Shown here: in pieces, positions 7,739 through 23,176 of the stretch
How the letters are laid out: each line of letters opens with the position of its first letter
Numbering within the stretch: the stretch's first letter is position 1
Position numbers and translations under genes: made by a program
NCBI GenBank assembly: GCA_964588435.1
Contig: CAZPPI010000001.1
Span: 1 to 57,829 of the forward strand
DNA: 57,829 bases
Source: an uncultured Gammaproteobacteria bacterium
GTDB lineage: Bacteria; Patescibacteriota; Patescibacteriia; Patescibacteriales; UBA12465
Direction: 5' to 3'
The notes under the pieces: generated by a model
The model's database searches: none
The model's input: only the letters and a program-made list of their open reading frames with translations
Told to the model about the DNA's origin: nothing

Positions 7739-8812
7739 ATGACTAGTGAAATTCAACAATTAAAAAAGGAGCTTAGCGATTTAGTAATTGAATTTTATAA
7801 GGCCTATTTTAAAATTCTATTTTCTCGCAAGAAAATTAAGCTCAGTGAAAAACTATCCATGTCGAAAGAAGTACCTGGTCTTTTTATGGTTATTAAAAAA
7901 TATTTAAATACCATTGAATCAGCAAAAGCCTTCAGCGGTTTTATGATTGCTCTTAATAAAGAAATTAAAGAAAATGATAAAGACGGGTCTTTATCAGAGG
8001 TTAATTTAAAAAAGATTAAAAATACTCCAACAAAATCATATAATTGGATGTATTACAGTTTATTTAAAGAAATGATTATAGGCACTAGTCTTCTAGCCCC
8101 TGCACTTCAAAAATCTCTTCAAACTGGTAACGTAACACCATTAAAAAAGATAATAATAGATAGCGATATTGAAGGACAACTCAGAGAAATCCAAGCAATG
8201 GAAAAAGAATTAATAGACGCTAAAGCCGATATTTTTATCAAGCCTAAATATTATAAAAAGTTTTTTCTAGATTTTCATAAAACCGTTATGGCTTGGCTTA
8301 AAGCCTTAGAAATGACTAACGAATTTGCCGACACGGAAAGCAAGTTATATAAAGAGCCACTAACTGATGCTTGGAGTAATATTGAAATTAGATTTAAAAA
8401 CAATCATGACATCACTTTAAAAATAGACGGCGAAGAAAATGATTCTAGTTATGAAGAACTAGGCTTTGCCGATACTCGTCAAAATTCTTCTCAAAATGCA
8501 TCCTATGTTAAAAGCTGGAATACTTTAATTCTATTTTCCACTCAAAATGGTCGTATTAAAATGAATGATTATGCCGGAAGCAAAGCTAAAAAAGAATTAT
8601 TTAAGAAAAATAAACAAGACTTATCTAAAAGATTAAAAGCATATTTCAGCCTTAAAGACGATCCGATTATCTATAATGAAAAGAATGAAGAATATCAGAT
8701 AAAAATAAAACTGGCTCCACCGCCAGACTTTAGGGACTCCTGGTCGGACCGCCGCATATCCGAATCAAACACTAAAAAACAACCACCCAAAGAATACCTG
8801 TCCAACTACTAA
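7739..8812 (+). CDS. Hypothetical protein (element A)
   Basis: 357-aa ORF followed by an intrinsic terminator. No recognisable motif. Confidence 0.6.
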   Translation: MTSEIQQLKKELSDLVIEFYKAYFKILFSRKKIKLSEKLSMSKEVPGLFMVIKKYLNTIESAKAFSGFMIALNKEIKENDKDGSLSEVNLKKIKNTPTKSYNWMYYSLFKEMIIGTSLLAPALQKSLQTGNVTPLKKIIIDSDIEGQLREIQAMEKELIDAKADIFIKPKYYKKFFLDFHKTVMAWLKALEMTNEFADTESKLYKEPLTDAWSNIEIRFKNNHDITLKIDGEENDSSYEELGFADTRQNSSQNASYVKSWNTLILFSTQNGRIKMNDYAGSKAKKELFKKNKQDLSKRLKAYFSLKDDPIIYNEKNEEYQIKIKLAPPPDFRDSWSDRRISESNTKKQPPKEYLSNY

Positions 8813-8846
8813 AGAATTTTCCTCGCTATTTCCCTGCTAATTTAAT

Positions 8847-8879
8847 CCTCTAACTTACCTAAAGTTAGGGGATTTTTTT
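8847..8879 (+). terminator. Rho-independent terminator
   Basis: CCTCTAACTT-ACCT-AAGTTAGGGG hairpin followed by a T7 run, 35 nt after the stop codon of 7739..8812. Confidence 0.7.
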
Positions 8880-8985
8880 ATTACCTGCGAAATTTCGTCC
8901 ATATAGGTTAGGAGACAATCAAAAGGTCGAGCTCCTCATTAATTCCTAATCTAAACTATGTGTCAAAAGTTAAATTACCAGCCTG

Positions 8986-9042
8986 TTTGTTTTTTCTTTT
9001 TTCGGCGGCATCCCCTTGGGGGAGCCGAAAAAAGAAAACAAA
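8986..9042. repeat. 57-bp near-perfect palindrome upstream of Rep (candidate replication origin or recombination site)
   Basis: TTTGTTTTTTCTTTTTTCGGC ... GCCGAAAAAAGAAAACAAA arms form about 19 bp with a 2-nt bulge. They flank an inner TCCCC-TT-GGGGA mini-hairpin. There is no U-tract after the hairpin on either strand, so it is not a classical terminator. Confidence 0.55.
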
Positions 9043-9105
9043 GGCGATAAGAAATATTATGCTTCTTAACTTGACTATAAGCACACTCAACAAGATTCCA
9101 AAGAT

Positions 9106-9930
9106 ATGAATGCCAACGAGAGATTAGAACGTGGACGATTAAAGTATTTAGAATACATTAAAAAAGCTAGAGAAAAACGAGCTAAAGGGACTTATAAAAC
9201 CAAAATTATTATCTCCGGATCATTTATTGAAGAATATATTTACCAAAATGAAATTACTTTAGGAAGAAAGGCGGTCCGTAGAAAGAAACGAAAAAATAAA
9301 CCCAAAGAAGAACAAACAGAAATGCGAAGCGGTGCCTTAAGGCGAACCAGAATGACAATTATGAGATTAGTAAATAGCAACCCCGATTTTATCACTTTCC
9401 TCACTCTGACTTTTGATGAAAATAAGTTTGAGAATAAAAAAGATATCACCGAATTTGAAAAGTGCAATTATCTGTTTATGACTTTCATCCAAAGATTAAA
9501 ATATAACTTCCTCGGCATTAAATATCTGGCCGTTCCCGAGTTTCAAGGCGATTATTATTTCCGCACCAATATCAAGAAAGAGTTCGGCGGAGCCATTCAT
9601 TATCACATTCTTCTCAACCAAATGGTTGATACTAAAAAAATTGAAAAAGTTTGGCGGCACGGTTTCGTAAAAATTAACAAGATAAAATCAATCAATAATG
9701 TCGGCTTATACGTCTCTAAATATTTAAGTAAAGAATCTTTTAACCGCAAATATTTCGGCAAGAAAAAGTTCTTTTATTCTCGCAACTTAAACCGCCCTCA
9801 AGAATTTAAAGGCCAAGAATGCGAAGAGATGTTAATGGGCTATTCTCCGCCACCAGAAAAAGTTTATGAAAAGGAATTTAGCAATAAATATCGAGGTGAA
9901 GTAATGGTAAACATTTATCAAATTAAATAA
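9106..9930 (+). CDS. HUH-superfamily rolling-circle replication initiator (phiX174 gpA / Microviridae VP4-like motifs)
   Basis: 274 aa with motif 1 FLTLTF, motif 2 HYHILL (HUH) and motif 3 YVSKYLSK (two-Tyr YxxKY, as in phiX174 gpA YVAKYVNK). Confidence 0.8.
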   Translation: MNANERLERGRLKYLEYIKKAREKRAKGTYKTKIIISGSFIEEYIYQNEITLGRKAVRRKKRKNKPKEEQTEMRSGALRRTRMTIMRLVNSNPDFITFLTLTFDENKFENKKDITEFEKCNYLFMTFIQRLKYNFLGIKYLAVPEFQGDYYFRTNIKKEFGGAIHYHILLNQMVDTKKIEKVWRHGFVKINKIKSINNVGLYVSKYLSKESFNRKYFGKKKFFYSRNLNRPQEFKGQECEEMLMGYSPPPEKVYEKEFSNKYRGEVMVNIYQIK

Positions 9931-9931
9931 T

Positions 9932-10111
9932 ATGGCGAACTTAGAAAAAATTAATTTCGGAGCTTACGGCTACCAGGAATGGCTAATCGGAAAAATTAAC
10001 GGCATGAAAAAAGCACTGGAGACCGGAGAAAGTTTTGAACATTCTGAAAGCCAAGAAATGCTTGAAAGAAAACTAGCCTCTTACGAAAAGGCTCTCAAAG
10101 AAATTGAGTAA
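9932..10111 (+). CDS. Small hypothetical protein (59 aa; below the ORF-track cutoff)
   Basis: The ATG lies 1 nt after the Rep stop codon. The ORF reads MANLEKINFGAYGYQEWLIGKINGMKKALE...KEIE* and is co-oriented in the operon. Confidence 0.45.
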   Translation: MANLEKINFGAYGYQEWLIGKINGMKKALETGESFEHSESQEMLERKLASYEKALKEIE

Positions 10112-10147
10112 AAAGTCCTGCACAAACTTTTTACGATAAATATATTT

Positions 10148-10324
10148 ATGATTAGCAAGTTCAGACTAGAACAACTGAAGATAATCATCAAAAATGATTA
10201 TGGACGAGATCTGACTGATTCCGAGGCATTTGAACTTGGTCACCAATTAGTCGCTTATTATAGCGGTTTAAAAAAGTTGAAATTATCTAGACATTTTGCT
10301 AATATGAAAATGCACACTAATTAA
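10148..10324 (+). CDS. Small protein (58 aa) homologous to the ORF at 18325..18489; candidate recombinase accessory factor
   Basis: MISKFRLEQLKIIIKNDYGRDLTDSEAFELGH... shares the DYG-x2-L-x2-SEA-x2-L core with the 54-aa ORF that precedes recombinase 2. Confidence 0.5.
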   Translation: MISKFRLEQLKIIIKNDYGRDLTDSEAFELGHQLVAYYSGLKKLKLSRHFANMKMHTN

Positions 10325-10449
10325 ATACAATAGCCAGAGGCTTTTTTTATACTTGTCCCCTAAAAGGGGGCGGTTCTGACTGGCAAGTATTGCTTTTGGC
10401 GATATTTAGTTAGTGTGCACAGAGCCGCTCCCTTTTAGTTACCAAAAAT

Positions 10450-12078
10450 ATGAAAAATACGGACAAAAAATGCATTTTATATTGCCGGGTTTCCTCTAAA
10501 GAGCAAGAAGAAAAAGGTTATTCTTTAGGAGCTCAGGAGAAACTACTCAAAGATTACGCTAGTCGTAATGATTTTAGTATTGTGAAAACCTACAAGATTT
10601 CCGAATCCGCCAGCGGCAAGCTGATCAGGAAGACTTTTTCGGAAATGTTGGTTTATACTAAAAAGAATAAACTTAATCTTATTTTGGTTGAAAAAATAGA
10701 TAGGCTAACTCGCAATTTAAAAGATGCGGCGATTATTAGCGACTGGATAAATGAAGATGAAAAACACGAGATTCATTTTGTTAAAGAAAATTTTATTGTT
10801 AATCGCAATACCAGAGCTCACGAAAACTTAGTTTGGGATATGAAAGTGGCAATTGCTAGATTTTATACTAATAATTTGAGCGAAGAGGTAAAGAAAGGAC
10901 AGAAAGCTAAACTTGAATCCGGTTGGATGCCACAACGCCCTTGTTTAGGTTATAAAACAATTGGCGATAAGGGACATAAAACCCAAATTATTGATGAAAA
11001 AATCGCTCCTTTAATTAAACAAGCTTTTGAATTATATGCGAGCGGTAATTATTCTTTAAAATTTTTAGCGGCAGTAATGTTTAATAAAGGGCTCAAAGCG
11101 CCATCAGAAAAAAAGTTGGCGAGCAGTACTTTGTATAATATTCTCACTAATCCATTTTATATCGGACAAATTATTTGGAATAAAAAAGTCTATTCGGGCA
11201 ATCATGAGCCAATAGTATCCCAAGCATTATTTGATAAAGTGCAATTAAAAATTAAACGTAAATTATCGGCGACTCAATTTAAAAAACATCTATTTATTTT
11301 TAAAGGCAATATGCGCTGCGCTGAATGTGGCGGCATTATTAGTTGGAGTCAAAGAAAGGGTCATATTTATGGAACTTGTAATCATTACCGCCCTTGCTTG
11401 CAAAATATTAGAGTTAGAGAACAAGATATTATTGATCAATTAATGGTCTATCTAAAACAGATGAAAGCGGCTACACCAGACTTAATTGATTGGCTAGAGA
11501 ATACAATAAAGGAAGTTGAGCCGACCAATAATAACCTTCTAGAAAGCCAAAAACAGGCCCTAGGGGAGAGTTTAAAACGAATTGAGAATAGATTAGACCT
11601 AATCTATAATGACAAATTAGACGGCAAGATCACTGAAGATTTTTACCTTAAAAAATACAATGAATTTAATGCTGAAAAAATAGATTTAGAAAAGAAAATA
11701 AAACAATTTAGTTCGAATAATCAGATAAGTGATTTTGAAAAAGGCATCAAGCTTCATCGTTTAGCTTATGAGGCTCCAGACTTAATTGATAACACCGAAG
11801 AGGAGACTGAAACTAAACGTTTAGTTTTATCACAATTATTTTCGGACTTTTCATTAGAGGGCGATAAAATAAGGGTAAAACACACTTTAGGTGGCGGATT
11901 TCTTGCCGAATGGATGCCTCGTGTAAATAGCAGTTTCGGACCAGTAAAATTTGGCGAAGATTATGAAAAAACAGGCCTTTTACAACCTGTTAGTTCATCG
12001 ATGCTCTCTCTAATGGACTGCTTTCGAATTTACTTTATATCCACAACAAACAAGATTTTTGTACCGAGATTTAATTAA
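10450..12078 (+). CDS. Large serine recombinase 1
   Basis: 542 aa. The resolvase catalytic N-domain (ILYCRVSSKEQ, DRLTRN), a recombinase domain and a zinc ribbon (CAECGG...CNHY) are present. The C-terminus KTGLLQPVSSSML is paralogous to that of recombinase 2. Confidence 0.9.
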   Translation: MKNTDKKCILYCRVSSKEQEEKGYSLGAQEKLLKDYASRNDFSIVKTYKISESASGKLIRKTFSEMLVYTKKNKLNLILVEKIDRLTRNLKDAAIISDWINEDEKHEIHFVKENFIVNRNTRAHENLVWDMKVAIARFYTNNLSEEVKKGQKAKLESGWMPQRPCLGYKTIGDKGHKTQIIDEKIAPLIKQAFELYASGNYSLKFLAAVMFNKGLKAPSEKKLASSTLYNILTNPFYIGQIIWNKKVYSGNHEPIVSQALFDKVQLKIKRKLSATQFKKHLFIFKGNMRCAECGGIISWSQRKGHIYGTCNHYRPCLQNIRVREQDIIDQLMVYLKQMKAATPDLIDWLENTIKEVEPTNNNLLESQKQALGESLKRIENRLDLIYNDKLDGKITEDFYLKKYNEFNAEKIDLEKKIKQFSSNNQISDFEKGIKLHRLAYEAPDLIDNTEEETETKRLVLSQLFSDFSLEGDKIRVKHTLGGGFLAEWMPRVNSSFGPVKFGEDYEKTGLLQPVSSSMLSLMDCFRIYFISTTNKIFVPRFN

Positions 12079-13288
12079 ATTTTATTAACTCTCCATTTTC
12101 ATCATACCCATAAGACCTACTATTTCCCGAAGCATTCCATATCATATCAAATGCTGGTCGTAGTATTTTTGACACATCATCTTCAAAATCATTTAATATA
12201 ACTTCTGGCACACATATATCTTCTTCGCCTATTTCTTCGCTATCTAAAAGCCAATTTCCAGTTTTTATCAAAAAACCCTTAACTCCAATTAGCGAGATAA
12301 ATATAAAATATGGTGGCTCTATTTCTAATTTTTTTAGTATATCTAAATTATTCTGAATAAATTTAATCAGCTCTCTTTCTATCGCAATCATTGGTATAAT
12401 CCCTGTGTCTGCTCCGTGAGCAATCATCAAGGAATTAAAGCCCTCTATGGTACCATTACGGAATATCTGAGAATAGCTCGAGGAAAAACCATCACTCGGT
12501 GAATATGCGCAAACACCGTCCAAATTAATCCTTGTATTCCAACCAGACGAATATAATGGTCTAAAATCTATCTTGTGTTCTTTTAACTCTAATAATTGTT
12601 TGGATGTCAGCTTATTTTCATCAATAACACCAGATAATGGTATGATATGCACTGCGATAAAACTGTCTGAACTTTTCAACTTAACAGGACCATTATTAGC
12701 CTTGAGTTCAAAAATTCTATTTTTTCTAAAAATTCTTATACGATCAACTAAATTACTACCTTTAATAAACGCGTTTTTTAGCTCGTGCACATCCATTTCA
12801 TATTTTCCATTACTATTGCGTCTAAAAAATCTGTTAGAGTTTTTGAAAACAACCCTGTGAGGGCCATTCAAGCTTGGTTTTATTCTAATTAACAAAACAG
12901 ATTTTTTATCATCAACATCAATAGCACGAATATCAACCTCTATTCTCGGAGATATTCCGTCTCTAATAATACTTTCGAGCCTTTGAATTTCTGTATCTTT
13001 ATTTATATTCTCCAAACCAAATTCTTTATCTATCTCTTTTTTATTCTCAAAAATACCAAAAATTAAATCACCTCCATCGGTGTTAGAAAAAGAAGATACA
13101 TCAGCAAGAAATTCTTTTTTGTCATCATCGCCATTGCCAGGAACAGCCGATTTATATTCTAATGTTTTTCCTTCTAATACTTGATTATCAACCAAATTCT
13201 GTATATCGGATAACTCAATTGTATTAATATTTTTAGTAATCATATTTGCCAAACTATAAATTATTAATAAGCATATTAATATTTCCAA
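12071..13288 (-). CDS. AlbA_2 / Schlafen-like divergent-AAA domain protein with uncharacterised C-terminal domain
   Basis: 405 aa. KTLEYKSAVPG ... FSNTDGGDLIFGI matches the AlbA_2 signature (ExK ... AN/SNTxGGxLxxGV). The real start may be the internal Met at 13243. Confidence 0.7.
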   Translation of the reverse strand: MEILICLLIIYSLANMITKNINTIELSDIQNLVDNQVLEGKTLEYKSAVPGNGDDDKKEFLADVSSFSNTDGGDLIFGIFENKKEIDKEFGLENINKDTEIQRLESIIRDGISPRIEVDIRAIDVDDKKSVLLIRIKPSLNGPHRVVFKNSNRFFRRNSNGKYEMDVHELKNAFIKGSNLVDRIRIFRKNRIFELKANNGPVKLKSSDSFIAVHIIPLSGVIDENKLTSKQLLELKEHKIDFRPLYSSGWNTRINLDGVCAYSPSDGFSSSYSQIFRNGTIEGFNSLMIAHGADTGIIPMIAIERELIKFIQNNLDILKKLEIEPPYFIFISLIGVKGFLIKTGNWLLDSEEIGEEDICVPEVILNDFEDDVSKILRPAFDMIWNASGNSRSYGYDENGELIKFN

Positions 13289-13623
13289 ATACCGAGCTTT
13301 TTTAATGCAATCCTCGTCAATATATAAGATAGTGGGTATAAAAATTCAAACCAGTTTTCAAATAGAACACCCCAACCTAAAAAATATATGAGGATAAAAG
13401 CTATCAAAAGATATATTAAATTATAAACAACACTACCAATACCCCTATCAAAATATTTAATTACAAAAAATAATAAAATTAAATATATAATAGTATCTTT
13501 TGAAGTTTCCCATAAATTAGGCATCACTACTCCGAGAGCCTTAGCAATCTCTTGTTGAGCCTGCTCTAATATCTTTATAGGCTGAAACTGACTTAATGCA
13601 TTTTGTAAATCAGGGTCAGCCAT
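13276..13623 (-). CDS. Small membrane protein (2-3 predicted TM helices)
   Basis: 115 aa with the hydrophobic stretches IIYLILLFFVI and LIYLLIAFILIYFLGWGVLF. It is translationally coupled to both neighbours. Confidence 0.6.
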   Translation of the reverse strand: MADPDLQNALSQFQPIKILEQAQQEIAKALGVVMPNLWETSKDTIIYLILLFFVIKYFDRGIGSVVYNLIYLLIAFILIYFLGWGVLFENWFEFLYPLSYILTRIALKKLGIWKY

Positions 13624-13624
13624 A

Positions 13625-14437
13625 TTAAATATCTGCTCTATTAATTATCTCATATCTTTTTTGTAATGGTGGACATAAAATAGAAAAAGAATTATCAAAA
13701 GACAAAACGGTCCTTTTCTTACCACAATCAACTGATATGATAGCATCACCGATACCTTTATTATTTCTTAACTTATCCGCGTTTTTAATATCATCTTTTA
13801 TTTCTTTCAAATATTTATACATACTGACTAATTTTTTATCATCACGGAATTCATCGCAACCCAACAAATTAACCAATTCTTTGTCATACTTAATCCAAAA
13901 ATCATTTAATGGTAAACATTTTCTCTTATTATAAGCCGATATAAATTCCTTATATTCTTTCTCATTTCTTATATTTAATTTTATAATTTCATCATTTTGG
14001 AATTCTCCAACCATAGAACTAACATAAGTATAAAAAACTTCTTCCAAATTAAATATTACGGCTCTTAATTGTCTCAAACAAAGATTTATATTTTTACATT
14101 CTATAGATGTGCTAATTCTAAAAATAACCGATGTCATAATCAAAGCATTTTTCACCTGTCTTACTTGAAATTTATTAGACCATTCAGAAAAAGCTTTTGA
14201 CACATCACCAAGAATTTTTACCAAGAAATAAAAATCTATTATACTTTTTAACAATCCGGTCTTAAATTCATAAAGAACAAAATATGAACAAACAATAGTT
14301 GATCCATCACTGGTTTTCTTATATAAAAAATCAGACACTTCTGGACTTTTGCATCTCTCAATCTGAACAGAAGTGTCTAATAAATAACTATTTTTTTGTT
14401 TGCAGTTATTCTTCTTTTTCATTAGATAAAATTTCAA
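13625..14437 (-). CDS. PIN-like nuclease domain protein with large helical insertion
   Basis: 270 aa. Four acidic positions occur in PIN order: YLLDTSV, FVLYEFKTG, GIGDAIIS and LSFDNSF. Confidence 0.6.
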   Translation of the reverse strand: MKFYLMKKKNNCKQKNSYLLDTSVQIERCKSPEVSDFLYKKTSDGSTIVCSYFVLYEFKTGLLKSIIDFYFLVKILGDVSKAFSEWSNKFQVRQVKNALIMTSVIFRISTSIECKNINLCLRQLRAVIFNLEEVFYTYVSSMVGEFQNDEIIKLNIRNEKEYKEFISAYNKRKCLPLNDFWIKYDKELVNLLGCDEFRDDKKLVSMYKYLKEIKDDIKNADKLRNNKGIGDAIISVDCGKKRTVLSFDNSFSILCPPLQKRYEIINRADI

Positions 14438-14984
14438 TTTTTAATCTGTTAACTTGTTTGGAAAAAATTTTCAATTTATCCCAATCAATAACGCCATCTA
14501 TAAATCTTGATAACTCCCCGATAAAAGACTTGATTTGCCCTTCCGAAATATTAACCCAACAGTTATTATCCATTATAAGACTTACGGAGTTTACAAAAAT
14601 ATCATTTTCTTCTTTAGCAGAAAGATACCTGTCATAATGATAAATTTTATTTTTTATTTCATCTATCTTAAACAAACTATCTTCTGTTCCATTTTCAAGC
14701 CAGTAACTAAAATCGTCTATCAAATCTTTAACAAATTTTGCGGAATTAAATTCAACATATTCATTTGAAAATTTAACACCAGTACTGTATTCCCGAAAAA
14801 AATCAATTCTATTATCATTTTTACCATTATCACTCTCCTGTTTTATCTTCTCGCTTGTAAAAATATCGTCTCGAGAATATTTTTTTGGCACGTTAAAACT
14901 TGGGGAAATTGTTTCTTTCTTATTTTCTTCTTCTTTATCTATCTCAATTCTTGAAATTGTATGACTATAGTCAATGAGCTGCAT
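14406..14984 (-). CDS. Hypothetical protein
   Basis: 192-aa ORF that overlaps the downstream PIN gene by 32 nt. No recognisable motif. Confidence 0.55.
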   Translation of the reverse strand: MQLIDYSHTISRIEIDKEEENKKETISPSFNVPKKYSRDDIFTSEKIKQESDNGKNDNRIDFFREYSTGVKFSNEYVEFNSAKFVKDLIDDFSYWLENGTEDSLFKIDEIKNKIYHYDRYLSAKEENDIFVNSVSLIMDNNCWVNISEGQIKSFIGELSRFIDGVIDWDKLKIFSKQVNRLKIEILSNEKEE

Positions 14985-14987
14985 AAA

Positions 14988-15731
14988 CTATTGAATGATA
15001 TATTCTAAATAAGAACTCGCAATTTCTAAATTTTTATCAATCAAATTATCAATTTTTTCTATATTCTTTTCTGATTTTATATAAGTATCAACATCTAAAT
15101 AAATAAAACTTTTATATTCATCCATTTTGGCACTAATTTTTTCAACGTCAAACTGACTATTAAATCTCTGCAATGCCTCGTCTTTGGTAACTGGCCCCAA
15201 TATTACATTATTATTAATTCCGTCCTTAATAGCATTTATTGAAAACAAAACATCATTAACACTGTCTGATGATATTTGTAAAATATCATTCGTGTATATT
15301 TTTGAATGCAATAAATCCACAAGTTCATTAAAATCAAATTTAGTGCCAAAGATTTGGATATTCCTAAAACCCAAATGTTCAAATTCCTTTTCTTTGTCGT
15401 TCATTAAGCTAAATGCTTTTTGAAGATTAGCACTAAGCTCTTCCGTGTTTTCTTCTTTTTCATTTATATAAGAAAGTGAATTATACAAAATTTGAAACAA
15501 TTTATATTCGTCAGGAGAGTAAAGTGTAACATCTTGTCTGTTGGCTATACGCCAATGTTCAAATTCTTTTTCAAAATTTTTAGAAACAGCAATAGTATCC
15601 TGCCAAGATGAAAGAGTTGGCACAAAACGAACTTGCCCAATTATTCTTTGGCCAATTTTTATAAAATTTTTTGTCATATATTTGTAATTATAAATTACCA
15701 CATATAAACCCTTTTGTAAATCAAAAAACAC
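14988..15731 (-). CDS. Hypothetical protein (first gene of the five-gene operon)
   Basis: 247-aa ORF, 3 nt upstream of the next gene. The start is probably the internal MTKNFIKIG. No recognisable motif. Confidence 0.55.
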   Translation of the reverse strand: MFFDLQKGLYVVIYNYKYMTKNFIKIGQRIIGQVRFVPTLSSWQDTIAVSKNFEKEFEHWRIANRQDVTLYSPDEYKLFQILYNSLSYINEKEENTEELSANLQKAFSLMNDKEKEFEHLGFRNIQIFGTKFDFNELVDLLHSKIYTNDILQISSDSVNDVLFSINAIKDGINNNVILGPVTKDEALQRFNSQFDVEKISAKMDEYKSFIYLDVDTYIKSEKNIEKIDNLIDKNLEIASSYLEYIIQ

Positions 15732-15776
15732 AACTGCAAATTTGATATTTAGCCAAAATTATGTTAAATTATAATC

Positions 15777-15945
15777 GACTACCCAATTAAAAGTTCACGA
15801 TCATAAAGCCCGCTTTGGCGGTTTTTGTCCGTCTTTTGTCTCACGCTTGTGGGCAGAGATGGGCAGTTAACCTTCCACAAGCGAGACTTTCGGGCCTTCG
15901 TGAACAGTGGGTAGTCAGGTTTGACTGCCCTTTTTTGTTGGGCAG
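15777..15945 (+). ncRNA. Candidate structured RNA or 5' leader (multi-helix junction)
   Basis: Nested long-range pairings are GACTACCCA/TGGGTAGTC (15777-85 with 15908-16), GTTCACGA/TCGTGAAC, GCCCG/CGGGC and GTCTC-a-CGCTTGTGG/CCACAAGCG-AGAC. A 3' hairpin CTGCCC..GGGCAG follows. A TATAAT box at 15770-15775 lies just upstream. The region is locally GC-richer than its flanks. Confidence 0.5.
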
Positions 15946-15970
15946 GAATTTATAAATTTAATATAAATCT

Positions 15971-16558
15971 ATGCCAAACGAAACAATGAAAAAATGTAAA
16001 AAGTGTGGAGAGGAGATTTTAGCATCAGCTAAAACCTGTAAACATTGTCATTCTGATTTACGAAACTGGTTTATGAAACATAAAATCATAACCATCTTTG
16101 TAATATTCCCCATTGTGCTTACAATGTTTGTAAGTGCTTTTAATGATTTAGATGATGCAAAAAATGAAGATAATAATACTGGTTCAAATAACACAATTCA
16201 AAGCGAGGTTAAAATAGAACCAAAAACCATTACCGAAATTGAGATATCATCCTCAAAAATAACGAAAGATAGCATTGGCACGCCAATACTTAATGTTTCT
16301 TTTCTTAATAAAACAGATAAGACGGTTGACGGTGTTGATATTGAAGCGTATTTCTTGAACAACTTTGATGAACCAGTCGGTCAATTTGGCATGAAGCGAG
16401 AAGAAGCTTTTGGCGGTTCTATTCAAGAAAAAATCAATCCAAAAGGAACTTATACCGCTCAATGGAATTTAGCAGTATACGAACAAACGACTAAAATTAA
16501 GTCTATAAAAATAACACGGGTTCATTTTACAGACGGGACGATAGTTGAAGCAAACTAA
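15971..16558 (+). CDS. Zinc-ribbon / single-pass membrane protein with extracytoplasmic domain
   Basis: 195 aa. CKKCGEE...CKHCHS zinc ribbon, then the TM helix IITIFVIFPIVLTMFV, then a beta-rich C-terminal domain. Confidence 0.7.
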   Translation: MPNETMKKCKKCGEEILASAKTCKHCHSDLRNWFMKHKIITIFVIFPIVLTMFVSAFNDLDDAKNEDNNTGSNNTIQSEVKIEPKTITEIEISSSKITKDSIGTPILNVSFLNKTDKTVDGVDIEAYFLNNFDEPVGQFGMKREEAFGGSIQEKINPKGTYTAQWNLAVYEQTTKIKSIKITRVHFTDGTIVEAN

Positions 16559-16670
16559 GTCATAAAATCCCCTTCCCGACTTTCAAGATATACATACTCA
16601 ATTTTAAGATAAAAAGACCGCTATGAGGCAGTTTTAGGGCTTAAAATTGATATTTAAGCAGTAATAAGTC

Positions 16671-16802
16671 ATAGACAAACCTAACAAACTTAACACTCAC
16701 ATTAATAGATAAACCTGACAAACCTGACACTTACTCAAGGAGACGAATTGGACAAATCGGAGACCCACTTAAATAGACAAACCTCACAAACCTCACACCC
16801 AC
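16671..16802 (+). repeat. Iteron-like direct repeats (3 good copies plus 1 degenerate, 34-bp phasing)
   Basis: ATAGACAAACCTaACAAACtTaACACtCAC (16671-16700), ATAGAtAAACCTgACAAACCTgACACttAC (16705-16734) and ATAGACAAACCTcACAAACCTcACACcCAC (16773-16802). A degenerate copy lies at 16739-16768. Confidence 0.75.
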
Positions 16803-16831
16803 TTTAGGGGGCAAATTAAACACTAACAAGC

Positions 16832-16858
16832 AAACCGCCAAAAAGCGGTTTTTGTTTT
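16832..16858 (+). terminator. Rho-independent terminator
   Basis: AAACCGC-CAAAAA-GCGGTTT followed by TTGTTTT. Confidence 0.6.
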
Positions 16859-16902
16859 ATATTTATAAATAAAAATGTTAAAATATAATAAATATAAATG
16901 AT

Positions 16903-17352
16903 ATGAAAAATGTAAATAATCAAAATGATTGTATTATAATAAAACAAGGTCGTCGCATCCAAATTTCTTTTGGACCAAAAACAAATCTCACTGAAATAAG
17001 AGAATTTATATCTAAAAATAGTGTCATAATCAAAAATTTACAAAAAGATATATTAACCAAACAAGGGATTAAGAAAGAAAAAAGGAAAAAGTTTACATAT
17101 AACGAAATTAGAGATAAAAGAATTTGTGAACTTAGTCTACTTAAAAGAAATGAGTTGTTAGATTTAATTATTAAAAAAGAAGACTACAAATTAATTAACT
17201 ATAAAGACAGTTTAATAGCCGAAATTATTAATCAAGACATAAAGCCTATTTTTTTCTTAGGAAAAGATATTGCTCCAGCTAAAATAAGTTCTGACAATGT
17301 CAGAAAAATAATATCAAGAAAAAAGAGGCTATTTTTACAAGGAAAATTATAG
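16903..17352 (+). CDS. Hypothetical basic protein (element B)
   Basis: 149-aa Lys-rich ORF with no recognisable motif. Confidence 0.55.
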   Translation: MKNVNNQNDCIIIKQGRRIQISFGPKTNLTEIREFISKNSVIIKNLQKDILTKQGIKKEKRKKFTYNEIRDKRICELSLLKRNELLDLIIKKEDYKLINYKDSLIAEIINQDIKPIFFLGKDIAPAKISSDNVRKIISRKKRLFLQGKL

Positions 17353-17439
17353 CTTGTGACAAATTTCTTTAGAAGATAAAAGTAGATTATTGTCACAATA
17401 AAAAGAGGTATTCTTATAGTAGAATGCCTTTTTTATTTT

Positions 17440-17679
17440 ATGAAAAATGTGGATAACTTCAAAACCAAAGACCAATTTCTTGCCAGTACGCTTTATGCTC
17501 TTGGCGAGAGATTTTTGTTTTCTGAATGGGAAGACGGAAAGTGTTTTATATTTTTTGATAGTAAAGATAAATGCGAGCTAATAGTTTCTAAATATTATTC
17601 GGGGGAATTAAAAATTGATCCAAGAATTTTATTTGATAGCTTTAAGACAATTAAAACAATTATTTTTGGTCAAAAATAA
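17440..17679 (+). CDS. DUF5659-like small protein
   Basis: 79 aa. FKTKDQFLASTLYALGERF...CFIFFD...YYSGELKIDPRILFDSFKTIK matches my recollection of the DUF5659 pattern common in phage and CPR elements. Confidence 0.55.
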   Translation: MKNVDNFKTKDQFLASTLYALGERFLFSEWEDGKCFIFFDSKDKCELIVSKYYSGELKIDPRILFDSFKTIKTIIFGQK

Positions 17680-17689
17680 TCAACATTAA

Positions 17690-18325
17690 ATGAATATGAA
17701 ATATGAAAATCAAAAACCGTTTATTCCAGTCTTGAGAAATCTCAGAGAAGATTTTCTTGTTACAGGAAAAATCAGCTACAAAGAATTTTCGGTTATCTGT
17801 TTGCTTTATTTCTTAACAAATCCCATGAACGGACAAGCATCGGTTAGTTATTCTCAGTTGAGAGAGGAAACAAAAATAAAAAAAGATTATCTAAGAAGAA
17901 TTTTACAAAATCTTCTTTTTCACAAGTTAATATGGTTTAAGTCTCACAAAGGCAGGGGTGGGAGTTTCCCAATATGGATAGACGGTTTTATTAAAAGCAA
18001 AGGTGGTCCTAACGACATTGAGCAAATCAAAAAAAGAGAGCTAAATCATTACTCGCGACCAAGTAGCCACGGGTCTTTTTCACAAGCAGACAACGAAGTT
18101 GACGATGATTTTCACAACTTAAAAAATAGTTTTAATTCTGAAATAACTAAACAAAACGACTTAAGTATCAACCAAACTTTCACAACCGCCCATAATAATA
18201 ATGATAATAATAAAGAAAATGATTTATCTTTTGAAAAAAACAAAAAAGGATTAGATATCCTAAAAAATAAAATGACAGAAATCAATAACAAGAAAAAAAA
18301 TCTTGTTGATAAATATTCAATGTAA
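17690..18325 (+). CDS. Winged-helix DNA-binding protein, candidate iteron-binding replication initiator
   Basis: 211 aa. The N-terminal ~100 aa look wHTH-like (SYSQLREETKIKKDYLRRILQNLLFHKLIWF), and the tail is low-complexity and N/K-rich. It lies downstream of the iterons. Confidence 0.5.
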   Translation: MNMKYENQKPFIPVLRNLREDFLVTGKISYKEFSVICLLYFLTNPMNGQASVSYSQLREETKIKKDYLRRILQNLLFHKLIWFKSHKGRGGSFPIWIDGFIKSKGGPNDIEQIKKRELNHYSRPSSHGSFSQADNEVDDDFHNLKNSFNSEITKQNDLSINQTFTTAHNNNDNNKENDLSFEKNKKGLDILKNKMTEINNKKKNLVDKYSM

Positions 18326-18489
18326 TGAAATTAGATAAAAAAGCAATTAAAGAATTTCAAGAAATATACCGAGGAGATTACGGTGTAAATCTTGAATTTT
18401 CCGAAGCCGAGAAATTGGCTATCAGCTTTTTTATGCAAATGACGGCAATTTACAAAGAAATCCCCAAGAAGAGCTTTGATAATTATTAA
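18325..18489 (+). CDS. Small protein (54 aa), homologue of 10148..10324
   Basis: Its start overlaps the upstream stop codon (TAATG). MKLDKKAIKEFQEIYRGDYGVNLEFSEAEKLAISFF... The ORF ends 32 nt before recombinase 2. Confidence 0.5.
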   Translation: MKLDKKAIKEFQEIYRGDYGVNLEFSEAEKLAISFFMQMTAIYKEIPKKSFDNY

Positions 18490-18521
18490 AAACCATTATA
18501 ATAACGGCTAAATATAAATAT

Positions 18522-20267
18522 ATGAAAAATGAAATTAAAACCGAAAAAATTAAATATTTTGCCTACTTAAGAAAATCAACAGAAGGAGAAGAAAAACAAG
18601 CCCTTTCCATTGATGGTCAAAGAAGAAAAGCTGTTGAAATTTTTCCAGACTTACAAATCATTGAATTCTTAGAAGAAAGACATTCTGCTTTTAAGCCATA
18701 TAACAGACCAGTATTCAATAACATGATGGAGAGGATAAGAAAAGGAGAGGCTCAAGGAATTATTACATGGCACCCCGATAGATTAAGTCGAAACGAAATA
18801 GACGCGGCTACTATAACATATTTAGCAAGAACTGGGGTAATAAAAGAATTAAAATTTGGTTCCTATAATTATGATAACAGTCCAGAAGGAATAATGATGT
18901 TGCAAATGTCATTAAGTCAATCTCAATATTCATCATCTAAACTCGGTAAAGATGTAAAAAGAGGCTTAGGGGATAAAGCTGAAATTGGTTGGTGGCCAGG
19001 TCCCTCAAAACCAGGATACTTGAATACTCCCAACGGACAAAAAGGAAAAAAAATTATATTAAATGACCCAGAGAGATTTCCAATCATCAAGAAGGTGTTT
19101 AACACTTTACTAACCCACCTTTATTCCCCATCTCAGGTTTTAGATATGCTTAATAATGACTGGGGATACACGAGTGGTCCAAGAGGAAAGTTCGGAGGCA
19201 AACCAATGTCTCATAGTTATTATTACAAAATGCTTTCAGATACATTTTATTATGGCAGTTTTGAATTCCCCAAAAATAGTGGTAAATGGTATCAAGGAAA
19301 GCACGAGCCGATGATTAGCAAGGAAGAATATGATGAAATCCAAATGATGATTGGGAGAAGCTTATCAAATCCTCGTGTAGGAAATCGCCAAGACGCTTTT
19401 TATGGCTCTTTCTTTTGTGGTGAATGTGGTGGCACAATGACACCTGATTTCAAAATTCAAACAATATGCACCAACTGTAATCATAAATTTTCATCACGGA
19501 ATAAAGACTGTTGCCCGTCTTGTGGAACGAAGTTAGTGGATATGATAAATCCAAAACAACTTAAATATATTTATTATTGTTGTAAAAAAAATAAAGACAG
19601 AAACTGCAAACAAACTAAAAACATAGAAGAAAAACAATTAAACGATCAGATTATTGAAATTCTTAATCAGATTAGAATTTCAGAAAAAATGAAAAAATGG
19701 TTTATAAAACAATTAGACAGTGCCAGCAACAAAGAAATAAAGGATAGAACTGATATCAGAAAATCACTACAAAATAAATATGAAAATTGTCAGAAAAAAC
19801 TCGATAATTTGTTAAATCTTTTCATATCTATCAATAACACCAATAAAGAAATATTAAGTGATGATGATTATAGTCAAAAGAAGAAAGCCTTAGATATTGA
19901 AATGGCTGATATTAAAAATAGTATTAATAAATTAGAACAAAGAGCTGATGAATGGGCTGAATTAGCAATAGACACATTTAACTTCGCTTGTTACTCAAAA
20001 TATCATTTTGAGAATGGAGATTTTGAAACCAAAAAGAAAATTATTCTTGGGCTTGGTTCGAACCTAACAATGAAAGATGGAAAAATAGAGGTTATTTTGC
20101 CAAAACACCTTGAATTGATAAAAAATTCCAAAGAAATTATCCAAGCCGAAATTAAAACATTCGAACCTAATAATTTTATTGAATATAAAGCAAAAACAGG
20201 CTTATATCAGCCTGTTTCTACATCTATGCTCCCGGGGTCGGATTCGAACCGACGACCAATTGGTTAA
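18522..20267 (+). CDS. Large serine recombinase 2 (3' end antisense to tRNA-Asn)
   Basis: 581 aa. Resolvase domain (YLRKSTEGEE, DRLSRN), recombinase domain and Cys-rich zinc ribbon are present. The last 13 codons including the stop (20229-20267) are antisense to the 3' half of the tRNA. Confidence 0.9.
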   Translation: MKNEIKTEKIKYFAYLRKSTEGEEKQALSIDGQRRKAVEIFPDLQIIEFLEERHSAFKPYNRPVFNNMMERIRKGEAQGIITWHPDRLSRNEIDAATITYLARTGVIKELKFGSYNYDNSPEGIMMLQMSLSQSQYSSSKLGKDVKRGLGDKAEIGWWPGPSKPGYLNTPNGQKGKKIILNDPERFPIIKKVFNTLLTHLYSPSQVLDMLNNDWGYTSGPRGKFGGKPMSHSYYYKMLSDTFYYGSFEFPKNSGKWYQGKHEPMISKEEYDEIQMMIGRSLSNPRVGNRQDAFYGSFFCGECGGTMTPDFKIQTICTNCNHKFSSRNKDCCPSCGTKLVDMINPKQLKYIYYCCKKNKDRNCKQTKNIEEKQLNDQIIEILNQIRISEKMKKWFIKQLDSASNKEIKDRTDIRKSLQNKYENCQKKLDNLLNLFISINNTNKEILSDDDYSQKKKALDIEMADIKNSINKLEQRADEWAELAIDTFNFACYSKYHFENGDFETKKKIILGLGSNLTMKDGKIEVILPKHLELIKNSKEIIQAEIKTFEPNNFIEYKAKTGLYQPVSTSMLPGSDSNRRPIG

Positions 20268-20300
20268 CAGCCAACTGCGCTACCGCTGCGCCACCCGGGA
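20229..20300 (-). tRNA. tRNA-Asn (GTT)
   Basis: 72-nt cloverleaf folded by hand. Acceptor is TCCCGGG/CCCGGGA, D arm GCGC-AGCGGTA-GCGC, anticodon loop CTGTTAA and T arm GTCGG-TTCGAAT-CCGAC. CCA is not encoded. Confidence 0.9.
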
Positions 20301-20382
20301 ATATTTATTTCTCAAAAAATGAAAATGTCTCTAGAACATTTTATGCTCTTATTTTAGCAAACAAGCTTATTCTGTCAATGGT

Positions 20383-20411
20383 TTGACAAAACCTTAGGCT
20401 AAAACTAGAAT
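20383..20411 (+). promoter_or_regulatory. Sigma-70-like promoter
   Basis: TTGACA, a 17-nt spacer, then TAGAAT, about 36 nt upstream of the small ORF at 20448. Confidence 0.45.
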
Positions 20412-20447
20412 TCAATTATAAGTTCTTTAACCAAAAAAATATGAACC

Positions 20448-20621
20448 ATGGTGACAACAAGCATTTTTATCTTGATAGCAGCTATATTTATTCTGATTCA
20501 CCCTAAAATGGCAAAAAACTTTTTTCAAAAAATAAAAATGAAAAGAGCTCACGGCATAGCTGAAAAAGGGGTTAAAAGAATAAAAGCATTTTGGAAAAAA
20601 GCAATAGCACCTTTTAATTAA
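20448..20621 (+). CDS. Small membrane protein (57 aa; below the ORF-track cutoff)
   Basis: MVTTSIFILIAAIFILIHPKMAKNFF...APFN*. It is preceded by a near-consensus promoter and followed directly by a strong hairpin. Confidence 0.4.
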   Translation: MVTTSIFILIAAIFILIHPKMAKNFFQKIKMKRAHGIAEKGVKRIKAFWKKAIAPFN

Positions 20622-20655
20622 ACTGTTAAATTAATATTATTTAACAGTTTTTTGT
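20622..20655. terminator. Hairpin terminator between convergent genes
   Basis: AACTGTTAAAT-TAATATT-ATTTAACAGTT (11-bp stem) followed by TTTTT. Confidence 0.6.
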
Positions 20656-20666
20656 TTTAAATTCTC

Positions 20667-21884
20667 TTATTTTAACCTCTCAGTTAATATAGTAACTTTC
20701 TTTTTATCTATGACTATAAAGATTAAAGTGTATTTTCCACCTTCACCTATTTTTAAATGTTTATAAATCTCCTCTGGCTTTATAAAATAATTCTTTGCTA
20801 ATATTTCAGCCCTGTTTATACCTATTTTTTTTAACTCTTGCTTTAAACTTTTTAAAGAAATTTGAAAAACTTTTTTTACCATAAATATTCTAGCCGCTTT
20901 CATATCCGCTTTAGTTCCAGTTAAATAACTATTAATAGTTGTTAACCGTTTCAAACCATATTGACAAGCATAAGCTTCTAAAAGACCACTACGACTAATA
21001 GCTTTATCAGGTTCATAAATATATTTTAAAATTTTATCAGTCAACAAAGTACTCGCAACTAAATCTGAAACTATAGTATTTTTTTCTTGATAATTTGTAA
21101 AAAAATAATCTCCGTCTTTTCTAAAACAACTTGCTTTATTCCCTCCTCTTTTTAATCCTCCAAACCATAAAATCGCAACCTTGCAAGTATTATTTTCCGA
21201 GATAACTTCAAGCTCCGGTTCTTCGGGTAATAAAGAAATTTCCTGCCAGTCAAAAGCCGGCGAAATTTTAACGGCGACATTTTTTGTCTGCTTAAAAATC
21301 TCCGGCAAAATTTGAAGTAGATTAGGGCGTGAGTTTAAAATTGAACGCGTCTTAGTTTTTCCCTCCCGATTACGAGCCGGATCTAAAAAAACGGCCTCAA
21401 TATTTTTCATTTTATCCGAAGCAATAAATTCCTCAATTTTCAAATTCAAAAATTCAATTTTATTTTCTAAGCTATAAACTCTTGAATTAAGTTTAGCGCA
21501 AGTTAAAGTTATCTCATCTTCGTCTAAAGCTATAACCTTCTTACTCTTCTTAGTTAAAGCTAATAAATTTCCCCCGATTCCACAGCCTAAATCCGCGACT
21601 TGCCAATCGCCCCGAAAACGTTCGGCGATATGATCAGAGATTTTTTCAGAACTTGATTGCTCTAAACCTAAAGAAGTGAAAAACATTTTATTAGCCAAAC
21701 TAAATTTCCCTTCAGCTTTTTCTCTTGTCTCAATTATTGCCGAAGCGGTCGAAACTTGAGATCGTTTTTCTGTTTCTGTTTTAAATAAAAAATTATGGCG
21801 CTCTTTCCAAGTTAAAAGAGAGAGTTGCTCTAAAAGCAAATCTCCTTTTCGACTAGCTAAAAATTCTAAATCTTTAATTGTCAT
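20667..21884 (-). CDS. Class I SAM-dependent methyltransferase
   Basis: 405 aa with SAM motif I VADLGCGIGGNLLAL and a post-I acidic residue (ALDED). Confidence 0.7.
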   Translation of the reverse strand: MTIKDLEFLASRKGDLLLEQLSLLTWKERHNFLFKTETEKRSQVSTASAIIETREKAEGKFSLANKMFFTSLGLEQSSSEKISDHIAERFRGDWQVADLGCGIGGNLLALTKKSKKVIALDEDEITLTCAKLNSRVYSLENKIEFLNLKIEEFIASDKMKNIEAVFLDPARNREGKTKTRSILNSRPNLLQILPEIFKQTKNVAVKISPAFDWQEISLLPEEPELEVISENNTCKVAILWFGGLKRGGNKASCFRKDGDYFFTNYQEKNTIVSDLVASTLLTDKILKYIYEPDKAISRSGLLEAYACQYGLKRLTTINSYLTGTKADMKAARIFMVKKVFQISLKSLKQELKKIGINRAEILAKNYFIKPEEIYKHLKIGEGGKYTLIFIVIDKKKVTILTERLK

Positions 21885-23071
21885 TTATTTTTTAAAAATT
21901 TTCTGCCTTTTAATTTCTCTGGCAAATAAGTTTGTTCCGAGCTATCCTCTGTTGGTGTATATTTATAATTTTTTCCGTACTCCAAATCTTTCATTAATTT
22001 TGTCGGCGCATTTCTTAAATGCATTGGTACCGGCAAGGAGCCAGATTTTTCAATCTCTTGCATTATTTCGTTATGAGCGAAATAAACAGCGACGCTTTTT
22101 GGTGACTTAGCTAAATAAGCAGCACAATGAGCTAAGTTAACCCCGCATTCCGGTAAACCAATACTTTTACAAGCATCATAAGTCGTAGTCGCTAACATTA
22201 GCGCACTATTATTAGCTAAACCGATATCTTCGGAGGCAAAACGAATCATCCGCCTCGCTAAATAAAGCGGATCTTCTCCGGCCATAACCATCCTTAAAGC
22301 ATAATACATCGCCGCATCAGCGTCGCCGCCTCGCATTGATTTATGAAGAGCGGAAATTAAATTATAATGTTCATCTCCACTCTTATCATAAAGCAGTCCC
22401 GGTTTAGAGATTATTTCTTTAATTAAATCAAGAGAAAGAGCTGCGTCTTTACCCGCAACTTCTAAAGCACTTTCTAAAATATTTAAAGAACGTCTAGCAT
22501 CGCCGCTAGAAACCCGAGCAATGAATTTTAAAACATCGCGCTTAACTTTTATTTTTAATTCCTTTAAAGCTCGCTCTAAAATTTTTAATAAATCCTCTTC
22601 TCTTAGAGTTTCTAATACCACAACTTTCGTTCTTGATAGAAGCGCGGCGTTAACCGCAAAACTAGGATTTTCTGTCGTTGCCCCAATTAGTGTAATTGTC
22701 CCCATTTCAACTTGGGGTAATAAGGCGTCCTGTTGCGCCTTATTCCAACGATGAATTTCATCAATAAACAAAATTGTCTTCATGCCTAATCTCTTAGCTT
22801 CGCGCGCTTGCTCAACAATAATTTTTAAATCCTTAACCCCACTACCAGTAGCTGATAATTCCTTAAATTCCGCCCTTGTTTCTTTGGCAATAATAGCGGC
22901 TAAAGTCGTTTTTCCGCTCCCTGGTGGGCCCCAAAAAATTAAAGACGGAACCTTATCATTTTTTATAGACGCAAAAAGCCAAGCATCCGGACCAACAACC
23001 CGCTCCTGACCGTAGAATTCTTTTAAGTTTTTTGGGCGGAAATAAGCCGCCAAGGGTAAGTCTTTAATCAT
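21881..23071 (-). CDS. rarA: Replication-associated recombination protein A (RarA/MgsA AAA+ ATPase)
   Basis: 396 aa. FRPKNLKEFYGQ, Walker A GPPGSGKTT, Walker B FIDEIHRWNK, and a C-terminal MgsA helical domain (HYNLISALHKSMRGGD). Confidence 0.9.
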   Translation of the reverse strand: MIKDLPLAAYFRPKNLKEFYGQERVVGPDAWLFASIKNDKVPSLIFWGPPGSGKTTLAAIIAKETRAEFKELSATGSGVKDLKIIVEQAREAKRLGMKTILFIDEIHRWNKAQQDALLPQVEMGTITLIGATTENPSFAVNAALLSRTKVVVLETLREEDLLKILERALKELKIKVKRDVLKFIARVSSGDARRSLNILESALEVAGKDAALSLDLIKEIISKPGLLYDKSGDEHYNLISALHKSMRGGDADAAMYYALRMVMAGEDPLYLARRMIRFASEDIGLANNSALMLATTTYDACKSIGLPECGVNLAHCAAYLAKSPKSVAVYFAHNEIMQEIEKSGSLPVPMHLRNAPTKLMKDLEYGKNYKYTPTEDSSEQTYLPEKLKGRKFLKNK

Positions 23072-23176
23072 AATAGATATTTATATTTTAACCTTTTTTA
23101 AGAAAAAACAATAGAGAATATTGACAAATCAATTTTTAGGTGCTGAAATTACAATAGAACTTTTAAAATAACTAAT

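Follow-up and report, generated by a model that had tools for sequence, protein, structure and literature searches.

The tRNA-Asn locus and its two recombinases

The window analysed here is a 57,829-nt stretch, contig CAZPPI010000001.1 on the forward strand, and all coordinates are window positions. It belongs to a 0.78-Mb assembly with a completeness of 97%, and a genus mate of the source genome is Candidatus Falkowbacteria CP066698. The assembly has one tRNA-Asn gene, into whose 3' end a convergent large serine recombinase (LSR) gene, recombinase 2, is read (Table 1). Together with a second LSR gene, recombinase 1, it makes up the entire set of serine recombinase genes in the assembly. Each gene lies at the right end of a putative integrative element. 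Element A consists of a P' end (the right half of its attachment site, attP), a cargo of type I restriction-modification (R-M) and ATPase genes, a 357-residue protein, an HUH Rep protein, two small open reading frames (ORFs) and recombinase 1. Element B consists of a P' end, a five-gene cargo operon on the minus strand, a zinc-ribbon protein, iterons with a winged-helix protein, a small ORF and recombinase 2.

Table 1. Features of the tRNA-Asn locus (dG, folding free energy; aa, amino acids).
Feature	Position	Strand	Remarks
Native chromosomal flank downstream of tRNA-Asn (B arm, original attB)	1-55		Core GCTC at 52-55
attL of element A	52-96	+	GCTC, 8 nt, AGAC, 5 nt, TCGGAC, conserved ~18 nt; pattern match 52-78
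Element A, ~11.95 kb	56-12006	+	Bounds are two junction sites
hsdR (A cargo)	157-3258	-	Pfam
AAA_15/AAA_21 ATPase (A cargo)	3263-4879	-	Pfam
Small ORF (A cargo)	4884-5327	-	Cargo operon 157-7544
hsdM-hsdS fusion (A cargo)	5340-7544	-	Pfam
357-aa protein of conserved A-type core	7739-8812	+	No Pfam match; 71-81% aa identity in relatives
Rolling-circle-type (HUH) Rep of A	9106-9930	+	PF23343 REP_ORF2-G2P, E 2e-14; 86-96% aa identity in relatives
58-aa ORF upstream of recombinase 1	10148-10324	+	ORF list; no Pfam match
Recombinase 1, LSR, 542 aa	10450-12078	+	Last 24 codons (12007-12078) encoded by predicted left end of element B
Terminator-type hairpin and U-run carried by element A	11970-11991	-	Inside recombinase 1 ORF; dG -14.5 kcal/mol, z -3.0
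A/B junction	12003-12029	+	P arm of A, GCTC 12003-12006, putative P' arm of B (8 nt, GGAC, 5 nt, TCGAAT)
Element B, ~8.2 kb	12007-20231	+	Bounds from junction sites
B cargo operon	12071-15731	-	AlbA_2/Schlafen-like 12071-13288 (PF04326) and four proteins of unknown family
Three 34-bp phased direct repeats, iteron-like	16671-16806	+	Upstream of winged-helix gene
Winged-helix gene	17690-18325		Weak Rrf2/winged-helix match
54-aa ORF upstream of recombinase 2, counterpart of 58-aa ORF	18325-18489		No family match
Recombinase 2, LSR, 581 aa	18522-20267	+	Last 12 codons and stop antisense to tRNA-Asn
Putative intrinsic terminator of tRNA-Asn, supplied by element B	20194-20217	-	Hairpin and U-run inside recombinase 2 ORF; dG -21.4 kcal/mol, z -6.9
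tRNA-Asn(GTT), sole tRNA-Asn of assembly	20228-20300	-	ARAGORN; 3' end 20228-20249 is GCTC and B' arm

Both recombinases contain the Resolvase, Recombinase and Zn_ribbon_recom domains (Pfam). The catalytic domain, PF00239, is matched with E-values of 1.5e-23 in recombinase 1 and 2e-16 in recombinase 2, and residues R17 and S19 are invariant in an alignment of 54 sequences. PF07508 also matches both proteins. With PF13408, recombinase 2 scores above the cut-off (25.6 vs 25.3 bits) and recombinase 1 below it (19.8 bits). An AlphaFold2 model of recombinase 2 has a predicted local distance difference test score (pLDDT) of 87, with beta strands at residues 305-354, long helices at 388-498 and a disordered end at 548-581. 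When this model was searched with Foldseek, solved serine integrases were aligned over their full length at 13-19% identity and with E-values down to 5e-19, while sequence-level matches to PDB proteins were limited to the catalytic domain. The best Foldseek matches were chains of a cryo-electron microscopy series named 'serine integrase and RDF' (recombination directionality factor), apparently SPbeta-type (PMC11722253), followed by Bxb1, phiC31 and LI. Recombinase 2 is thus predicted to have a full LSR fold.

Overall, the two recombinases are 24% identical, and their last ~25 residues align well (BLASTP). Beyond the aligned part, recombinase 1 ends in 23 codons and a stop, which overlap the minus-strand AlbA_2 gene (12071-13288) by 8 nt. 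In recombinase 2, the stop codon TAA (20265-20267) overlaps the complement of the anticodon (20266-20268). ATGCTC is found in both genes, at 12001-12006 and 20226-20231, and position 20229 is the discriminator position of the tRNA. An initial annotation of the locus had described these ORFs, the tRNA, the C-terminal alignment, ATGCTC, the discriminator, the stop codon, two inverted repeats and the AlbA_2 overlap, and all of its coordinates were correct when rechecked.

Junction sites and half-site geometry

Three junctions are present at the locus, namely flank/P' of A (52-78), P of A/P' of B (12003-12029) and P of B/tRNA (20228-20249). Only the 4-bp core GCTC, corresponding to tRNA positions 71-74, is common to all three. 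The two-base crossover would therefore lie within GCTC, and the crossover dinucleotide is probably one of the non-palindromic choices, CT or TC.

Past the core, the right half-site of the tRNA begins after 8 nt with GGAT, which is directly followed by TCGAAC. The left ends of the two elements (52-78 and 12003-12029) have RGAY and TYGRAY at the same offset from the core, separated by 5 nt; in the DNA encoding the recombinase 1 tail this reads GGAC, 5 nt, TCGAAT (12015-12029). The same layout (GAY, 5 nt, a TCGAAC-like motif, 8 nt past a recombinase-specific end) was found at seven P-P' junctions of other subfamilies in the genus. Also, a minority of the LSR genes of the genus encode a recurring tail, D-x-(I/V/F)-R-(T/I), which is the T-arm motif with a 5-nt insertion.

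In serine integrases, the motif of the zinc-ribbon domain lies 5 bp nearer the crossover in attB than in attP, and the position of the inner domain is unchanged (Rutherford et al., PMC3783163). From this rule and the geometry described above, it follows that the D-x-(I/V/F)-R-(T/I) tails can be read as P' half-sites and the tRNA as the B' half-site. At the right half-sites of the window the outer motif appears, from the DNA sequence, 5 bp closer to the core in attB than in attP, as expected for an LSR. Similarly, the tail of recombinase 1 would be the P' half-site of element B.

The composite pattern GCTC-N8-RGAY-N5-TYGRAY has two matches in the 57.8-kb window, at 52-78 and 12003-12029, which are the predicted left ends of the elements. 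Shuffled versions of the window gave a mean of 0.01 matches, and at least two matches were obtained in 0 of 100 shuffles. On the minus strand of the window, RGAY-N5-TYGRAY is found only at 32514, outside elements A and B, and no inverted second copy of either attachment (att) region was found in the window.

No tRNA fragment is present from position 56 or 12007 onward, and the direct repeats (typically 15-50 bp) of a classical tyrosine-integrase tRNA island were not found at these junctions. Crossover inside the T-loop, with an element-borne copy of the tRNA 3' end, was considered and rejected, as neither left end has acceptor-stem sequence. The reconstructed empty site encodes the full CCA end, and the present tRNA-Asn gene encodes only C74.

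Two elements in tandem

The left limit of the array lies close to the start of the window. Positions 1-55 are identical to the final 55 nt of another contig of this assembly, C20, which terminates exactly at GCTC. The end of C20 at the core and the start of the window contig 55 nt upstream look like a k-mer overlap, caused by a branch of the assembly graph at the att core; no other branch of this C20/C1 fork was located in the bin. Positions 1-56 are 98% identical to contig C43 of genome G015, from the nearest species, in which a different P'-type arm follows the same GCTC. Nucleotides 1-80 of C43 comprise native flank, a P'-type arm (GGAC, 5 nt, TCGAAC) and the contig end. Since a foreign P' arm follows the same flank, a different element occupies the same tRNA-Asn site in G015. 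No recombinase was found in this sister species with recombinase 2 as the query.

Both ends of element A are supported by relatives. Window positions 49-96 are 89.6% identical to the left end of an A-like element at tRNA-Gln in G009. The two elements have the 41-bp P' end in common, the sequence to either side of it is unrelated, and the native flank in G009 has a terminator of its own just beyond the element. The core of A (7688-12006) is common to elements in G058, G008, G009, G061 and G052, with 72-96% amino acid identity. Homology of five A-like relatives stops at 12006, and one of the contigs ends exactly there. The core/cargo boundary in G058 was also tried as attL, which would leave element A without a left end; this was ruled out by the P' end found at 52-96 and in G009. 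At the A/B junction, a source-run Logan contig covers 11954-15564 and agrees with the window at every position, and a 91% identical Logan contig from another run starts at ~12001-12003.

These data are best explained by two independent integrative elements stacked at the 3' end of the single tRNA-Asn gene, each inserted by its own LSR, a reading to which we assign a probability of roughly 0.8. The array very probably runs from the native flank through element A and element B to tRNA-Asn, and both of its outer limits are present in the window. Tandem integration had already been proposed in the initial annotation, and the comparative evidence bears this out, given that the homology of A ends at 12006 and that relatives of recombinase 1 share the end SSSML. 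Two further proposals were also upheld: crossover at the common 3' end of the recombinase and tRNA genes, where GCTC alone is shared by the junctions, and the recombinase 1 tail as the left end of element B, since 12007-12029 has the geometry of a P' half-site. The start of element A, on the other hand, is not near 10450 but at position 56, with a P' end of its own. The element is 12 kb long, more than the recombinase gene, and includes a type I R-M cargo.

Alternatively, A and B could form one composite element with two recombinases that moves only as a 20-kb unit, much like certain islands with several serine recombinases, its single functional ends being 56 and 20231. Only these outer ends contact host DNA, the internal junction is a hybrid site, and a separate episomal form of A or B was seen neither in public contigs nor in the bin. 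However, solitary A-type elements exist elsewhere that have the P' end of A and its recombinase end next to a tRNA, and recombinase-2-like elements are found alone at tRNA-Asn. In addition, each half has its own replication module, and the internal junction has a complete P-core-P' layout. A single composite element is thus very improbable.

Another natural tandem array was observed in contig C3 of G058 (L207, 1000-20999). There, a 518-residue recombinase with a P'-type tail (265-1821) is followed, ~17.5 kb beyond, by a 570-residue recombinase reading into tRNA-Ser(TGA). The G058 array supports stacking as a recurrent outcome.

Terminator hairpins in the recombinase genes

Shortly before the core, both recombinase genes contain an inverted repeat (arms 20194-20201/20210-20217 and 11970-11975/11986-11991). 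The initial annotation had suggested these repeats as att candidates, but they are best read as tRNA terminators, as such hairpins occur at occupied and empty tRNA-Asn loci alike. At 20 tRNA-Asn loci of the genus, occupied or empty, a hairpin preceded by an A-run on the plus strand, which is a hairpin and then a U-run on the tRNA strand, lies 7-25 nt beyond the tRNA 3' end (up to ~35 nt in a few loci). The stems vary between loci, yet remain paired. Folding gave equivalent structures at almost all other tRNA-Asn loci examined, both occupied and empty, and the values for empty sites were similar. In close relatives, the hairpin of recombinase 1 is nearly unchanged beside tRNA-Gln, which indicates that it travels with the element. 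The copy at 11970-11991 is now orphaned from any tRNA. In the simplest reading of these sequences, each element would bring a replacement terminator for the tRNA that it severs from the native trailer.

The inverted repeat might instead serve chiefly as the portion of the P arm to which the recombinase binds. Its distance from the core, 12-35 bp, is one that an LSR half-site can cover, and it is retained at 11970-11991 even though no tRNA now precedes it. Against this, empty tRNA-Asn sites have the same type of hairpin and U-run in the same place, pairing is kept while stems vary, the U-run is always on the tRNA strand, and the hairpin shows no sequence relation to the GGAY/TCGAAY motifs found in the right arms. 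A mainly recombinase-binding repeat is therefore rather unlikely, although the two roles are not mutually exclusive.

Exchangeable tails and tRNA targets

Recombinases that read into tRNA genes are widespread among relatives of the source genome. Of the 88 LSR ORFs collected in the genus (45 genomes), 55 extend into the 3' end of a convergent tRNA gene, ~53 of them distinct because two loci are present in duplicate. The target tRNAs are Ala, Asn, Gln, Glu, Gly, His, Val and four Ser isoacceptors. The same holds for 54 of 71 complete LSR ORFs across the Patescibacteria, sampled through species representatives plus a few loci of other bins. Related genomes were also compared at tRNA-Asn, as the initial annotation had proposed: 7 of the 20 loci of the genus are occupied by an LSR reading into the tRNA, one of them a 76%-identical relative of recombinase 1. 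No relative of recombinase 2 was found when viral contigs were scanned with this protein, and an exact-pattern scan of metagenome contigs for the P' arm of B gave 0 matches. A literature search found no paper on tRNA 3' ends as targets of serine recombinases in Patescibacteria; new here are a two-element array for which every bound is placed, the reading of the inverted repeat as a terminator, and a T-arm mimic with a +5-bp offset.

The C-terminal tails of these proteins differ according to the DNA that follows the core. Relatives of recombinase 1 (75-95% identical) have the same C-terminus up to ...SSSML and then diverge into tRNA-Gln antisense, tRNA-Asn antisense (with or without intron sequence) or a P'-type tail. 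The 'DSN' tails, common among database homologues, result from translating the T-arm in antisense; database tails were sorted by regular expression and are rough, the counts of DNA loci being the trustworthy ones. Joined to its own P' end, recombinase 1 is predicted to have the 14-residue tail AWRDCFRTWVANNK, which almost equals the tails of P0036 and P0239. Similarly, recombinase 2 in a free circle would, judging from the junctions, carry the 23-residue tail that is now on recombinase 1.

The recombinase 1 lineage (75-95% identical; L065-L068, L051, P0121-P0135) is found at tRNA-Gln(CTG), tRNA-Gln(TTG) and tRNA-Asn. These tRNAs have the terminal GCTC and the GGAT/TCGAAC offsets in common, and their acceptor stems differ. 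In 11 of the 20 tRNA-Asn genes of the genus, the anticodon loop is split by a 230-620-bp insertion (e.g. L045, L046, L048, L050, L063, L064), and all six insertions tested match the group I intron model RF00028 with 85-98 bits. Where an intron-bearing tRNA-Asn is occupied, the recombinase ORF continues into the intron; the tRNA-Asn gene of the window (20228-20300) is intron-free. Contig C2 of G052 (L101/L209) has a recombinase with a P'-type tail, and the 20 kb downstream of it contain no tRNA. Either a very large element follows, or the junction arose in another way.

Integration model and evidence for mobility

The following mechanism is proposed for this LSR clade. The attP would straddle the end of the recombinase gene, with a P arm made of the last ~40 bp of conserved coding sequence, including the tRNA terminator hairpin, and a P' arm that mimics the tRNA acceptor/T-arm but has 5 extra bp between the GGAY-type inner motif and the TCGAAY-type outer motif. 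Crossover would occur within GCTC, at tRNA positions 71-74. Integration would then fuse the recombinase gene to the antisense strand of the tRNA, and the last codons of the protein would be exchanged. The tRNA sequence would be kept intact through position 74, while its trailer and terminator would be replaced by element DNA. A later element could use the still-intact tRNA half-site, or the hybrid site of another element, and a stack would result. The odd 23-residue tail of recombinase 1 is explained by the internal P(A)-core-P'(B) junction at 12003-12029.

The final order could have been reached by three routes: insertion of B into the attR of A, insertion of A into the attL of B, or integration of a fused A+B circle. 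Canonical LSRs do not recombine attP with attR, attL or attP.

Several findings weigh against the tandem reading and the model built on it. Because canonical LSRs refuse such pairings, every one of the three routes needs a relaxed left-arm rule. By inspection, a mirror of the GGAY/TCGAAY motifs is absent from the P arms (11965-12002 and 20190-20227) and from native B arms; the sites thus look strongly asymmetric, unlike textbook LSR sites with their quasi-symmetry. No close twin of element B was found when 300 genomes of the order were searched with AlbA_2, and its left end is placed by the end of the A homology, the motif geometry and the contig from another run that starts at ~12001. When Logan contigs of four runs were compared with window positions 4000-23500, no clean circular or empty-site joint was obtained; the joints listed in this comparison resemble noise, their sides being short. 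In the binned assembly, searches for the patterns of episomal and composite junctions and of the empty site returned only the two known junctions. The circular junctions and empty site proposed as a check in the initial annotation were thus found neither in the contigs of the source sample nor in the bin. Its suggestion that the tail differs between integrated and excised forms is in line with the tails of relatives, which differ after SSSML.

Both elements could also be long fixed, a fossil array in which the read-through tails are meaningless leftovers. The lack of excision evidence in public contigs and in the bin is in line with this, as is the predicted disorder of the tail region. Nevertheless, neither recombinase ORF nor any of the three junction sites is disrupted, the break between contigs falls precisely on the att core, a contig from another sample starts at the A/B junction, and occupancy of tRNA-Asn is patchy among species. 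A fossil array is therefore improbable, and two stacked elements that may still be mobile are preferred. The contig break at the core and the foreign contig start at the A/B junction are only hints of heterogeneity, and present-day mobility, like any consequence of the tail swap, is inferred.

Native left arms vary freely between genomes. This variability, and the lack of a visible left-arm mirror motif, suggest that recognition leans on the tRNA half-site and that occupied sites would stay usable. In its strong form, the LSR clade would recognise its target essentially by one half-site, the near-universal tRNA acceptor/T-arm, with the other arm almost free; we regard this as a tentative and somewhat doubtful proposal. 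If true, it would explain the switching between tRNA-Gln and tRNA-Asn at 75-95% identity, the stacking of heterologous elements, and the reshuffling of ends and cargo between elements via mixed excision. Beyond that, the alternative tails (from the tRNA, from P' or hybrid) could signal which state the element is in and adjust the activity of the recombinase.

Relation to other integration systems

The serine integrases of phages and integrative and conjugative elements (Listeria A118/LI, SPbeta SprA, Bxb1 and phiC31) have the same order of catalytic domain, recombinase domain and zinc ribbon with coiled coil as the recombinases described here. Short att sites with a tiny identical core are also common to both, as is an outer motif that lies 5 bp further out in the element site. 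In contrast, the targets here are the 3' ends of many tRNA genes rather than a protein-coding gene or unique site, attP falls within the end of the recombinase coding sequence itself, and recognisable motifs are found only in the right half-sites.

Among other known systems, the CcrA/CcrB proteins of the staphylococcal cassette chromosome mec (SCCmec) are large serine recombinases that insert at the 3' end of a conserved housekeeping gene, rlmH (orfX), and SCCmec elements stack in tandem. Insertion at a 3' end by LSRs and the stacking of successive elements are thus features of both systems. Unlike here, the target of SCCmec is not a tRNA gene, and the ccr genes are internal to the cassette rather than reaching across its att site. 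We know of no half-site like the T-arm mimic in SCCmec.

In myxophage Mx8 (IntP/IntX), attP lies within int, and integration into a tRNA gene exchanges no more than the C-terminus. The attP of SSV-type archaeal integrases is likewise inside the int gene, and the SSV1 gene is split on integration (PMC5861418). As at the present locus, integration alters the integrase gene itself in both systems, and Mx8 also shares the exchange of the C-terminus at a tRNA. However, these are tyrosine recombinases with long identity segments, and the SSV1 gene is split, not re-tailed. Prochlorococcus tycheposons are similar in being small self-replicating cargo elements specific for tRNA genes, with tandem junctions observed. 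Of 937 tycheposons, 910 use tyrosine recombinases, and they leave partial tRNA copies as repeats (bioRxiv 10.1101/2020.12.28.424599), whereas a serine recombinase is used here and only 4 bp are shared.

Serine integrases are major tools of genome engineering, and their site logic is known from a handful of phage systems. The family described here is a large natural set with tRNA 3' landing pads, in which the T-arm-copy attP half-site, with exactly the 5-bp offset expected from structural studies, offers hundreds of natural test cases of this rule, and it suggests recombinases that might be directed at conserved tRNA genes. The window itself provides a clean tandem array in which all bounds are defined and the P-P' junction is a natural hybrid. 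For ultra-small bacteria, it means that defence cargo can be stacked and exchanged at essential single-copy tRNA genes without damage. At tRNA-Asn, this cargo comprises a type I R-M system, an OLD-like ATPase and an AlbA_2/Schlafen-like operon, and the replacement terminator is element-borne as well.

Cargo, replication modules and small features

Where element A has its R-M operon, the A-like elements of G008 and G009 have one that is also of type I but different. Upstream of the cargo operon, a 150-bp non-coding stretch (7535-7682) is 80% conserved in these two elements (L121, L122). Both have ~530 bp extra near this region, absent from the window, and the R-M operons behind it are of different families. 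The stretch looks like a cargo-exchange joint.

In element A, a long palindrome with T/A-rich arms and a C4/G4 centre (8986-9045) lies ~60 bp upstream of the Rep gene and is a possible replication origin. The iterons and the winged-helix gene are likely to be the replication module of element B. The 58- and 54-residue ORFs upstream of the recombinases have in common a short motif around YG..L..SEA; as a speculation, they are candidate accessory or directionality factors. Finally, a 37-nt inverted repeat (73% complementary, 41-nt loop) at 10342-10456, which lies upstream of recombinase 1 and extends into its start codon, may be regulatory.

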